DNA from: Escherichia phage vB_EcoS-IME253
Sequence record: NC_047810.1
Direction: 5' to 3' (one strand)
DNA length: 46,717 nucleotides
Of this stretch, positions 39,259 through 42,655 are shown one piece after another (the stretch's first letter is position 1; the number at the start of each line of letters is the position of its first letter). A model generated the notes under the pieces. That model saw only the letters and a list, made by a program, of their open reading frames with translations, was not told the DNA's origin and made no database searches. Position numbers and translations under genes: made by a program.

Positions 39259-39681
<423 letters not shown>

Positions 39682-39710: not shown

Positions 39711-42614
39711 TTAAATCAATTTAACAGATCTTAACTGATTACCAGAAGTTGTAGATATTGTTGTTGAACTAACTAACGTCCCAGACAATGCAAACGAAAT
39801 AGCTCCAGTCGATGAGGTTCCAGTAGCAAACCTTTGAGGTGAATCGCTTATAACACTTATCTTATTTGCTGTAAAAGTATTAGTGCCAGAAAAACCAGTA
39901 GTTACAACCAAATCCTGATTGAGTCTAAATCCAAATCCAACAGTAACAGAGGTTGACTCTTTCACAGGAATGTTAAGCCCATTTAGACGCACACCTGAGA
40001 TATCAAAGAAATCACAAGAAGAAAGAAGCGCCATTCTTGAAATGCCTGTTGTTATTGGTAGCGTACTCTGAGACTGTCCATTGAAGTTACATACAAATCT
40101 TGTGTTAATGAAACTAATATCATGATCAACAGAGCCATCAACCGGAGAGGTCGTACCAGATGTTGACTTAACAATACCGCCAACAAATTTTATTGCCACA
40201 GGTCCATTTGGGTCTGAACCATAGTAAGCTCTAAGCCTTTCAACATTACAATTAACCATGTAATAGCTCCCCCTCTGGTTTGTCTCAAATATAGGGTATC
40301 TCGAGCTTCCGACAGGTGAAGAGAGATCATATATAGAAACGTTAGGGTTATGAAGACTGTTAGCACCCATGAAAACGATATTATTTGATAAAATCCCCTT
40401 TATACTTATGTTGGTAGTAAACCTTCCAGTCAATGAGCTTTCAGAATTTGTCATGTCCGAGAATGGCCCCTTAAACCTTGAAAAATCAATAGTAAGTCCC
40501 AAGCTAGCAGATGAAGGGAAAGCCGACATGTTAACATCTGATATTGAAACGTCAGAAGGGAAAAGCAGCGCACCATCTCTACTTGAGTAGAATAAATTAC
40601 CAGGATGAGAACTGTAGTTTCCTGACTTGAAGTTAAGGCCCTTAATCCTAACTGAGTTAAACAGAGTGCTCTTTATTGGTGAGCCAGCTACAGGTCCATT
40701 TCCTTCATAAGAAATTCCATTTATCAAACCCGTCCCGGTCAGGCTAGTACTTCTTGTGCCTGTAAAAGTAATGTTATCCATGTAAAGGTTTCCGTCAAAG
40801 AAACCTCCAGCGTCCGCCCTTGTTGTTATGATATTCCCATTCGTATATCTAGACGCATTAAATGCACTATCCCTTATATGCAAATCGCCAAGACCAGTAA
40901 CAACAACACCACGGGCACCGATATTGCAGTTTTCAATCTTGAGGTAGTTATGAAAAGGCATGTGAAAGTCAATTCTACTTAGATCACAATTTTCAAAAGT
41001 TACGTTTGCGCAGTTGTTACTACCATTTGCGCCCCATCCTTTACCGTTAACCCTTGCGTTCATAATCCTTACGTTCATTGATTCACCTATTGATAAGGCG
41101 TATGAGTAAAGCTCACCAGAAGAATCTCTTGCGTCTGCAACAGACTCGGCAAAAAGACCATCAACTGTGATATCATATGAGTTAGCTATTGCCAACCTTG
41201 TATCGCTAAACACTTGCGTTATCGGCTTGTTAATAAAGGAAATATCTTTTATTAACAACCTTGTAGAATTATTAACATAAACTATCTGATACCGTGTCGA
41301 AAGACTTTCATCTATAGTTAAACCCTTGATTTCCTGAGTTGTCTTGTTTATCTTCAAGGCTCTAACTGATGTAACATTATTTCCAAGATCATACTTCAGT
41401 GAGTTCTCCAGATAACCCCTATTGTAAACCCTATTGAGTTCAATTCTTTTCTGAACAGAATCCCTATATGTGTACATGTCCTGATTTGTATAAAAAACAA
41501 TAAAACAACCATCAAGGTCACGATTTTCAGATATAGAGTCGAACAAATTACTTCCAGCAGCTCTTGATTCATTAGACATGGAGTTAAAAGATGAAACAAC
41601 AGATGACGAAGCGTCATAAGTTGTAGGTTGCCCGTTGGTTATAGTTATCTGCCCGGTCCATGAGGATGATGGTTTTATAACAGAGCCTGTAAAATCAGCA
41701 CTCAATGAACCAATATCAATATAATCGGAACCAGAAACAAGAAAAACACCATCATTCTGCTTTATCTTTAGATTTTTGGATTTTGCGTAGTTTATCGCTC
41801 GATTTATACCTGAAATATCATTAGTAATACCATCACCAACACAACCAAAATCATAGAAACTAACATAACCTTTAGATCCTAGTTCAGACCACGAAGAATC
41901 ACCAATCCCACCAGAAGAATATGGTGTCGAGTTTTCCGGGACTGTCTTAGGTAGATCTCCCATCCATACGTATGACTTTGGCTTACCGGAGTCAAGCCAT
42001 ATCATTTGTTGATTTCTTGACTCTATTACACCTCCGGACTCAAATGATGAAATTAAGGCACCAGATAATGAAATTAAGGCACCAGATAATGATTCCGCAT
42101 AACCCCGTGCAGCTTGTTCTGATGACATTGCTAATCCAGCACTCGCTGCAGCAGAAGCCATATCACCTGCTACCTGGGCAGCATTCTGCGCAACCTGTGA
42201 TGACATGTTTACAACATCGCCATACTGATTGTTAACCTGTGTTACTTTAGATTCAAAATCATTAAAGTCAAAGTTGTTAAATGCATCAACTGCATCAGCA
42301 ACCTCAGTTTCACGTGACTGATAGTAACGAAGAGTCTCAGCAACATCTTGAGCTAATCCCTGAACGGTAATCCCATCATGAGCAAGAATAGCGTAACCAG
42401 TTCCAGCAGGAACAGTTTCAGAATTAGGGTTATAAACATTAATCTGCGTATCGCTGATGATCTCAGAGATGGTGTAAATTTTTACTGGCTCAGTTTTAAA
42501 TACAATGGTGGCACCTACGCGAATCAGTGTAAGCGGTGCTTTCCATGTTGTCCCGACACCAGTCACCTCGCCGTTTGCAGCTAATGATGCGGTTCCCAAG
42601 TCATAAATTGCCAT
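39711..42614 (-). CDS. tailspike / lateral tail fibre protein (beta-helix type, putative)
   Basis: About 970 aa, Ser/Thr/Asn/Gly-rich; N-terminal MAIYDLGTASLAANGEVTGVGTTW resembles conserved tail-fibre anchor domains; ATG 42614 inferred. Confidence 0.6.
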   Translation of the reverse strand: MAIYDLGTASLAANGEVTGVGTTWKAPLTLIRVGATIVFKTEPVKIYTISEIISDTQINVYNPNSETVPAGTGYAILAHDGITVQGLAQDVAETLRYYQSRETEVADAVDAFNNFDFNDFESKVTQVNNQYGDVVNMSSQVAQNAAQVAGDMASAAASAGLAMSSEQAARGYAESLSGALISLSGALISSFESGGVIESRNQQMIWLDSGKPKSYVWMGDLPKTVPENSTPYSSGGIGDSSWSELGSKGYVSFYDFGCVGDGITNDISGINRAINYAKSKNLKIKQNDGVFLVSGSDYIDIGSLSADFTGSVIKPSSSWTGQITITNGQPTTYDASSSVVSSFNSMSNESRAAGSNLFDSISENRDLDGCFIVFYTNQDMYTYRDSVQKRIELNRVYNRGYLENSLKYDLGNNVTSVRALKINKTTQEIKGLTIDESLSTRYQIVYVNNSTRLLIKDISFINKPITQVFSDTRLAIANSYDITVDGLFAESVADARDSSGELYSYALSIGESMNVRIMNARVNGKGWGANGSNNCANVTFENCDLSRIDFHMPFHNYLKIENCNIGARGVVVTGLGDLHIRDSAFNASRYTNGNIITTRADAGGFFDGNLYMDNITFTGTRSTSLTGTGLINGISYEGNGPVAGSPIKSTLFNSVRIKGLNFKSGNYSSHPGNLFYSSRDGALLFPSDVSISDVNMSAFPSSASLGLTIDFSRFKGPFSDMTNSESSLTGRFTTNISIKGILSNNIVFMGANSLHNPNVSIYDLSSPVGSSRYPIFETNQRGSYYMVNCNVERLRAYYGSDPNGPVAIKFVGGIVKSTSGTTSPVDGSVDHDISFINTRFVCNFNGQSQSTLPITTGISRMALLSSCDFFDISGVRLNGLNIPVKESTSVTVGFGFRLNQDLVVTTGFSGTNTFTANKISVISDSPQRFATGTSSTGAISFALSGTLVSSTTISTTSGNQLRSVKLI
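42047..42088 (-). repeat. perfect 21-bp tandem duplication inside tailspike gene
   Basis: atgaaattaaggcaccagata x2 on plus strand, encoding SLSGALI-SLSGALI in frame. Confidence 0.8.
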
Positions 42615-42637
42615 TGTGTAAAGTCTCCATTTGTAAA

Positions 42638-42655
42638 ATAGCACGAATTGCTAAG
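42638..42655 (+). promoter_or_regulatory. solo palindrome copy (no -10-like hexamer at expected spacing); candidate operator
   Basis: atagcacgaattgctaag about 30 bp upstream of the tailspike start codon (minus strand); expected hexamer position reads GGCATA. Confidence 0.35.

Follow-up and report, generated by a model that had tools for sequence, protein, structure and literature searches.

The lateral tailspike gene of Escherichia phage vB_EcoS-IME253 carries a perfect in-frame tandem duplication of 21 bp, which quite probably represents a real, lineage-fixed allele that arose by a slippage-type event, added one heptad to a trimeric stalk while keeping its register, and is approximately neutral. 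Within the window (the whole stretch of DNA analysed, 46,717 nt of NC_047810.1), positions 42047-42088 read directly as two tandem copies of ATGAAATTAAGGCACCAGATA. Tandem Repeats Finder delimits the repeat at 42047-42092, with a period of 21, 2.2 copies, 100% matches and 0 indels, and its score of 92 is the highest in the whole window; the last four letters, ATGA at 42089-42092, are the start of a third copy. Perfect tandem duplications with a period of 12-60 number two in the real window and none in five shuffles, and the 21-nt duplication is therefore not a product of chance; a run of 25 matches at one fixed offset has an a priori expectation of about 1e-15 per position. An earlier note on this DNA, which had reported a perfect in-frame duplication in the tailspike gene encoding SLSGALI-SLSGALI in the N-terminal third of the protein, is borne out on both points by direct reading, Tandem Repeats Finder and the translation, which places the heptads at aa 175-188, some 18-19% of the way along the 967 residues. 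Either of the two SLSGALI copies may be the new one. On the plus strand, an 87-aa ORF (41972-42235) spans the repeat and encodes MKLRHQI twice; considered as a candidate functional element, it was dismissed as an antisense shadow of the tailspike gene.

The features referred to below are as follows.

39711-42614, minus strand: tailspike/lateral tail fibre gene, 967 aa plus stop (ORF listing, Pfam and PHROG matches, Rtp annotation)
42276-42614, minus strand: conserved virion-anchor region at the N-terminus, aa 1-113, made up of a beta-rich domain and a helix at 84-113
42063-42266, minus strand: predicted long alpha-helix of the stalk, aa 117-184 (AlphaFold2, heptad periodicity, homologue bundles)
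42047-42092, no strand assigned: tandem repeat array in which two perfect 21-nt units are followed by the first 4 nt of another (Tandem Repeats Finder, direct reading)
42072-42092, minus strand: heptad copy 1 in codon phase, SLSGALI, aa 175-181 (translation, alignment to Rtp)
42051-42071, minus strand: heptad copy 2 in codon phase, SLSGALI, aa 182-188 (translation, alignment to Rtp)
42047-42050, minus strand: 3'-most TCAT microhomology in gene orientation; the same tetranucleotide stands at 42068-42071 and 42089-42092
41877-42050, minus strand: Tail_spike_N (TSP1/Gp66 N-terminal) domain, aa 189-246 (Pfam PF18668)
39714-41867, minus strand: putative receptor-binding/enzymatic body, aa 250-967 (PDB match, Rtp annotation)

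The tailspike gene and its domains

The gene starts with the ATG at 42614, the start shared by Rtp and all homologues, and its product is identical to the protein of vB_EcoS-IME253 labelled tail fiber protein in GenBank (APU93270.1, P0121). It is the orthologue of Rtp rtp50 (YP_398994.1), a putative tail fiber with a beta-helix fold, which lies at the same locus between the primase and an SSB-like gene and has the same domain order; the gene order in the window is primase, tailspike, SSB-like and Erf. The lateral fibre locus of Drexlerviridae was defined here, after a published description, as lying between primase/helicase and recombination genes (PMC8594841). Judged by its T1 gp26/Rtp rtp50 position, its conserved anchor and its variable remainder, the gene is a lateral tail fibre or tailspike of this family.

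In the alignment of homologues, N-terminal columns are at least 90% conserved up to about aa 130, and DNA matches to other Drexlerviridae end at about nt 330-434 of the gene; N-terminal conservation has been described for Drexlerviridae lateral fibres in the BASEL paper (PMC8594841). The anchor is also covered by PHROG N-terminal matches, and the N-terminus matches PDB 7LZJ/7VYV (E = 2e-34). Tail_spike_N begins directly after the duplicated heptads and is recognised above the gathering threshold (48 bits vs a cutoff of 25, E = 1.3e-12), with fold matches to 4QNL, 4OJ5 and 6NW9 by Foldseek and sequence matches in the PDB as well. The same domain, by sequence and by fold (Foldseek probability 1.00), is present in CBA120 TSP1/TSP3 and G7C gp63.1, but these proteins attach via other N-terminal modules, in branched tailspike complexes of myo- and podoviruses, and lack the Drexlerviridae anchor and long stalk.

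With respect to the body, aa 250-944 match PDB 8X8M, the K64-ORF41 capsule lyase (E = 1e-40), for which the PDB chain numbering is ambiguous for mapping the catalytic residues Tyr528, His574 and Arg628 onto the tailspike alignment. The body is also about 50% identical to E. coli prophage tailspikes, and its Rtp orthologue is described as a beta-helix fold, by annotation only.

The stalk as a putative coiled coil

Between the anchor and Tail_spike_N, AlphaFold2 predicts a continuous helix at aa 117-184, with beta structure from 188, and the duplicated segment forms the final heptad of this helix. The model is a monomer of moderate quality (mean pLDDT 71.6, pTM 0.30), in which pLDDT is about 88-91 over residues 110-170 and drops to 77 and 67 across 171-190, including the duplication. 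When 70 distinct stalks are counted back from the start of Tail_spike_N, their hydropathy has a power of 36.7 at a period of 3.5, compared with at most 6.9 at the other periods scanned (2-7). Each heptad has two hydrophobic maxima, with spacings of 3 and 4 residues, as in the a/d core positions of a heptad repeat, and both leucines of SLSGALI fall on them.

Structures of homologous proteins point in the same direction. The Klebsiella phage depolymerases DpK2 (RAD2, PDB 7LZJ) and Depo32 (GH-K3, PDB 7VYV/7VZ3) share the anchor and proximal stalk (aa 1-171); cryo-EM of DpK2 revealed an extended N-terminal triple-helical bundle (PMC8552709), and in Depo32 a neck helix was seen to follow a helix-bundle domain (PMC10581125). 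In these trimers, the bundle leads into a neck helix or connection domain and then into the beta-helix. The similarity stops just short of the duplicated heptads, at about aa 171, and the two depolymerases differ from the window tailspike in distal stalk, connection domain and enzymatic body; the helical bundle itself is seen at low resolution only, without an atomic model. Given that cryo-EM shows DpK2 and Depo32 to be trimers, we infer three chains for the tailspike as well, that is, a stalk formed by a trimeric alpha-helical coiled coil. The duplicated segment could act as a hinge or neck rather than canonical coiled coil, because SxSGAL contains a conserved glycine and a symmetry break or linker is reported near this point in DpK2.

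Stalk length in the family changes in steps of seven. Among 74 homologues, the spacer from anchor to domain measures 55 residues in one, 62 in 51, 69 in 20 and 71 in two, so that 72 of the 74 fall on the 55/62/69 ladder, and in the alignment the gap blocks of the stalk are 7 or 14 residues long, one divergent junction class excepted. Rtp, with one heptad, has 960 aa and a spacer of 62, whereas the window protein, with two, has 967 aa and a spacer of 69. Older, diverged heptad duplications are recognisable in family stalks (for example, QVNTQYGDVVTIAE / QVNTKHGDVVTIAE); an insertion at the duplication site itself is confined to the IME253 lineage among 72 distinct stalks, and within the distal stalk conservation is highest in SxSGAL. 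The suggestion that the repeat reflects length variation of a linker or coiled-coil segment is thus supported: one heptad has been added at the end of the helix, in a family whose lengths differ by multiples of seven. Insertions of 1-6 residues are known to strain trimeric coiled coils (PMC4786415), and the ladder offers a practical rule for building chimeric Drexlerviridae tailspikes, namely to fuse them in heptad register.

Heptad-wise change of stalk length is an already known kind of variation. The P22-like tail needle gp26 likewise connects its conserved N-terminus, which binds the virion, to a variable C-terminal domain through a trimeric coiled coil, with 11-16 heptads among relatives (PMC3741392). 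It belongs to another family, acts as tail plug and membrane sensor, has no sequence relationship to the tailspike, and its heptad variation is found between diverged homologues, unlike the perfect recent duplication described here.

Predicted effects of the extra heptad

The added heptad, S-L-S-G-A-L-I with both leucines predicted to lie in the hydrophobic core, would sit at the C-terminal end of the stalk that appears to link the virion-anchor domain to Tail_spike_N and the enzymatic body of the lateral tailspike. Because the insert is exactly seven residues long, the core register should be kept on both sides, and the trimer is expected to fold normally. The tailspike head would then be carried roughly 1 nm further out and slightly rotated, and the protein would leave the common class of 62-residue stalks for that of 69 residues, to which further family members belong. 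Most likely, such a change is neutral or nearly so, and as it stands the finding matters little.

An alternative, which we regard as unlikely, is that the heptad was selected as it alters the reach, flexibility or azimuth of the tailspike head and thereby adsorption or host range. That stalk length is evolvable is indicated by the discrete length classes, 62 and 69 both being populated; moreover, the allele is known from sewage-type metagenomes and not just from a laboratory isolate, and the duplicated SxSGAL, the motif most conserved in the distal stalk, adjoins the presumed hinge or neck. However, the quantisation in multiples of seven is accounted for by folding constraint alone, and the IME253 lineage is the only one with an insertion at this site. 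The biology of the phage weighs on the same side: IME253 was isolated on the rough strain BL21(DE3), and its terminal receptor has been established experimentally as FepA (PMC6499177), while lateral tail fibres or tailspikes are presumed to bind surface glycans and to be dispensable on rough laboratory strains, terminal-receptor specificity in Drexlerviridae being assigned to a separate RBP locus (PMC8594841). For the same reasons, the description of the gene as a host-range determinant has to be narrowed: it concerns a presumed glycan-binding lateral tailspike and does not extend to the terminal receptor, which is FepA, specificity for which is assigned to the separate RBP locus.

A broader form of the adaptive idea, less probable still, is that stalk length throughout Drexlerviridae is a selected, heptad-quantised "ruler" that sets the distance and azimuth of the head, with the IME253 step from 62 to 69 being adaptive. 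If this were true, a recent step at the conserved SxSGAL neck or hinge would change adsorption on glycan-bearing hosts. Should the extra heptad prove to affect adsorption, it would provide a minimal one-step system for relating stalk length and neck geometry to tailspike function.

Origin of the duplication

As the earlier note had advised, the tailspike was compared with related genes, and the two closest relatives have one copy each. The alignment with Rtp rtp50 contains 29 substitutions in 2883 nt and exactly one gap, of 21 nt, so that the genes are 99% identical apart from the indel, and Rtp has a single SLSGALI. P0002 (locus L005), an 87% identical relative, likewise has a single copy in the same TCAT...TCAT context. 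In both single-copy loci, Rtp (L001) and P0002, the DNA reads GGAA[TCAT]TATCTGG(T/C)GCCTTAATT[TCAT]CATT, in which two TCATs 21 nt apart (17 nt between them) bracket the unit, the kind of substrate on which replication slippage is expected to act. In the window, the copies are joined head to tail with no spacer, giving an array of 2 x 21 + 4 nt, the arrangement characteristic of slippage-type events. Since Rtp and P0002 are each single-copy, one copy is, on this comparison, the ancestral state and the two-copy allele is derived. The 21-bp duplication most likely arose by replication slippage, which would have occurred between the two TCATs of a single-copy ancestor on the IME253 branch of Rtp-like phages; we infer slippage rather than take it as demonstrated, because a microhomology of 4 nt is short. 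The attribute "recent" is valid in a relative sense only, the duplication being younger than the split from Rtp (about 1% divergence); the allele now appears to be fixed in a circulating lineage. The duplication offers a clean, datable example of stalk length changing by one heptad, combining microhomology slippage with a register constraint.

The opposite polarity, with two copies being ancestral and the Rtp and P0002 lineages each having lost one by direct-repeat deletion, is very improbable. Losing a unit between perfect 21-nt repeats is, it is true, mechanistically easier than gaining one at a microhomology of 4 nt, but this scheme requires two independent, identical losses, and 69 other distinct stalks are without a heptad at the insertion site. 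In addition, the two copies are equal at 21 of 21 nt, while the P0002 unit has one synonymous difference (GGC vs GGT).

Independent assemblies and copy number

Assembly and polishing are known to generate perfect short tandem duplications in error, and the earlier note had raised an artefact as a possibility; in the IME253 assembly this would be a repeat that had been collapsed or expanded, or else a chimeric read. The identical duplication is also present in two ENA contigs from metagenomes of other projects, ERZ15185080 NODE_18 and ERZ28615251 MUNK22-1 scaffold_59 (L003 and L004), which match the window at 99.97% identity over 8.9 and 5.9 kb, respectively. Within the tailspike gene, these two contigs are identical to each other and differ from the window at 2 nt, and the same 967-aa protein is encoded by a Logan assembly. 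Both contigs are nearly clonal with IME253 and show independent sequencing rather than deep evolutionary persistence. An array of 42 nt poses no assembly ambiguity, since it is far shorter than a read, and the duplication is in frame with the register kept. With the same array in independent ENA and Logan assemblies, an artefact was dismissed and retains hardly any probability.

Equally implausible is a programmed hypervariable repeat of the contingency type, in which frequent copy-number switching would vary the fibre: a tandem repeat inside a host-interaction gene invites the idea, but there are just two units of a length divisible by 3, which precludes frame switching, all three IME253-like assemblies agree in copy number, and the secondary structure of the DNA is ordinary, folding energies of both strands, for one and for two copies, being no better than those of shuffles (z = +0.4 to +1.9). 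A contingency locus or phase-variable simple sequence repeat was accordingly rejected as a class for this array. Searches of IMG/VR, GTDB genomes and JGI metagenomes returned no matches to the duplication junction elsewhere, and no three-copy or other junction variants. The "ongoing" variation proposed earlier was thus not seen, the alleles having one or two copies only. In IMG/VR, the single-copy pattern was found in Rtp itself only, and the two-copy allele can serve as a lineage marker that distinguishes IME253-like phages from Rtp.

The repeat array and its coding context

The tandem repeat in the IME253 tailspike gene is probably a derived slippage duplication that adds one heptad to the stalk immediately before the Tail_spike_N domain, with little or no functional effect. 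By direct reading, ATGAAATTAAGGCACCAGATA occurs twice, head-to-tail, at window 42047-42088, and Tandem Repeats Finder gives 42047-42092 its top score in the window (period 21, 2.2 copies, 100% matches, 0 indels), the 4 extra nucleotides after the two units, ATGA, being the beginning of a third. The array is read in frame in the minus-strand tailspike ORF as SLSGALI-SLSGALI (aa 175-188 of 967), and thus the perfect in-frame 21-bp duplication described in the earlier note is confirmed. The window holds two perfect tandem duplications of period 12-60 versus none in five window shuffles, and a chance origin of the repeat is excluded. Opposite the tailspike gene, an antisense ORF of 87 aa at 41972-42235 (plus strand), most likely a non-coding shadow ORF, carries the repeat as MKLRHQI twice.

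Features of the tailspike gene
39711-42614 including stop, minus strand: tailspike ORF, 967 aa from the ATG at 42614
39714-41867, minus strand: tailspike body (aa 250-967)
aa 189-246: Tail_spike_N domain (PF18668, Pfam)

The ATG at 42614 (MAIYDLGT) is the start in phage Rtp and all homologues; a mechanical ORF call uses a GTG at 42644 (977 aa), taking in window 42615-42644 (minus strand), 5' of the conserved start. The product is identical to the IME253 'tail fiber protein' (APU93270.1 / YP_009789235.1), and its gene lies between a primase gene on one side and SSB-like and Erf-like genes on the other, where Drexlerviridae have their lateral tail fibre locus. IME253 belongs to Rtpvirus and was isolated on E. 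coli BL21(DE3); it uses FepA as terminal receptor and infects in a TonB-dependent manner (PMC6499177). According to the BASEL study, the lateral tail fibre is conserved only at its far N-terminus, for virion attachment, while the rest is presumed to recognize surface glycans and is dispensable on rough K-12 (PMC8594841). PHROG tail-fibre families hit either the tailspike N-terminus or its body. The body is homologous over aa 250-944 to K64-ORF41, a Klebsiella K64 capsule lyase (PDB 8X8M, E = 1e-40), and shares ~50% identity with E. coli prophage tailspikes bearing a P22-type head-binding N-terminus (PF09008); one enzymatic module is therefore carried on both siphovirus and podovirus anchors.

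Stalk structure and heptad register

The N-terminal part (aa 1-330) was modelled with AlphaFold2 from 45 aligned sequences, with a mean pLDDT of 71.6.

Predicted elements (AlphaFold2)
N-terminal: beta-rich region
aa 84-113: helix
aa 117-184: one long helix (pLDDT ~88-91 over 110-170, 77 and 67 across the duplication)
aa 188 onwards: beta structure

Confidence in this model is thus lower across the duplicated residues. The spacer, running from where the conserved anchor ends (aa 120) to where Tail_spike_N begins (aa 189), was compared in 74 homologues from two database searches, and measured 55 residues in one protein, 62 in 51, 69 in 20 and 71 in two; the window tailspike falls in the 69-residue class, and those of Rtp and its next relative, P0002, in the 62-residue class. 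Mean hydropathy counted back from the Tail_spike_N start, with all length classes pooled, has a power of 36.7 at period 3.5 and at most 6.9 elsewhere. Each heptad has two hydrophobic positions, and both leucines of S-L-S-G-A-L-I occupy them. With the predicted helix, this periodicity and spacers of mostly 55, 62 or 69 residues, the proposed length variation of a coiled-coil segment is supported. In an alignment of 72 distinct stalks, all gap blocks are 7 or 14 residues long except in one divergent junction class, which has a block of 5, and a 7-residue insertion at the duplication site is found only in the window-type allele. Coiled coils rise by ~1.5 Å per residue, and one heptad would make the stalk ~1 nm longer.

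In P0047, P0048 and P0054, the stalk includes an older tandem repeat of 14 residues (two heptads) at ~aa 125-152, QVNTQYGDVVTIAE / QVNTKHGDVVTIAE, with 11/14 identical residues, and several other stalks contain 7-residue near-repeats such as ASQVSSD / ASQVSAD. Heptad duplication is thus recurrent in this tailspike family and the usual route by which its stalk evolves. In theory as in experiment, a trimeric heptad coiled coil becomes strained or disrupted when 1-6 residues are inserted (PMC4786415), which accounts for the rule that stalk length changes in multiples of seven. P22-like phages likewise vary in the number of heptads, from 11 to 16, in their needle, a trimeric coiled coil (PMC3741392).

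Over its first 171 residues, the tailspike shares homology (E ~2e-34) with two Klebsiella phage depolymerases, DpK2 (7LZJ) and Depo32 (7VYV/7VZ3). By cryo-EM, DpK2 is a trimer whose N-terminal 'extended triple helical bundle' is seen only at low resolution and is lost on C3 averaging owing to a symmetry break or a linker (PMC8552709). In Depo32, the anchor and the helix-bundle domain are unmodelled as far as residue 185, after which come a neck helix, which is short, and a connection domain (PMC10581125). By analogy, the stalk here would form a trimer. The duplicated motif may serve as a neck and not be a canonical coiled coil, given its conserved glycine and its position close to where homologues have a presumed hinge or neck. 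Adaptive tuning of stalk length or orientation is an unlikely reading of the extra heptad. The 55/62/69 ladder of stalk lengths is of use for chimera design.

Copy number in relatives and origin of the duplication

A comparison with related tailspike genes, as the earlier note had suggested, places the change on one branch. Compared with its Rtp orthologue rtp50 (one copy, 960 aa), the gene carries 29 substitutions, and the only gap is one of 21 nt. P0002 (87% identical; Logan run SRR22560099, locus L005), called at 982 aa, with 22 aa added upstream of the start of the 960-aa protein, also has one copy. With single copies in both, the duplication is derived within the IME253 lineage after its split from Rtp, and the reverse polarity, with two independent deletions, is very improbable.

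The two-copy array recurs identically in two ENA metagenome contigs, ERZ15185080 NODE_18 (45,352 bp; L003) and ERZ28615251 MUNK22-1_SAMEA4777433 scaffold_59 (45,280 bp; L004), which match the window without gaps at 99.97% identity over 8.9 kb (NODE_18) and 5.9 kb (scaffold_59), and a Logan assembly also encodes the 967-aa protein. An artefact of a single assembly is thereby ruled out, and the one that the earlier note had considered can be set aside as exceedingly improbable. The two-copy allele is already present in public records, and the literature searched makes no remark on it; a search for the junction in IMG/VR, GTDB genomes and JGI metagenomes returned no further sequence.

In both Rtp and L005, the single-copy DNA reads GGAA[TCAT]TATCTGG(T/C)GCCTTAATT[TCAT]CATT, in which TCAT forms a 4-nt direct repeat spaced by one unit length. 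If replication slipped or switched template from one TCAT to the other, a tandem copy of the 21-nt unit would result, and the window array, 2 x 21 + 4 nt, matches the expected product. As DNA, neither strand folds better than shuffled controls, and hairpin-assisted mechanisms are therefore not indicated. Microhomology-mediated tandem duplication and whole-heptad indels in phage coiled-coil fibres are both already well known; programmed hypervariability is hardly credible as an explanation.

Other observations in the genome

The SSB-like gene adjoining the tailspike gene (39259-39681, plus strand) contains a CAG/CAA trinucleotide repeat at 39589-39656, a second length-polymorphic repeat directly beside the tailspike gene, which encodes the C-terminal poly-Q tract QPQQQQQQQQQQQQQQRQQPQQQQQ. 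At this position, the SSB-like proteins of Rtp and the L005 phage have QQNNRQQQ..., and they are 143 and 141 aa long versus 140 in the window. The IME253 genome is a mosaic, in which window 1-25000 has its closest match in phage ZL19 (98.5% over 87%), the second half has only ~92-94% identity to phiA2-1, ZL19 and Rtp, and the tailspike body is shared only with Rtp (98.3%).
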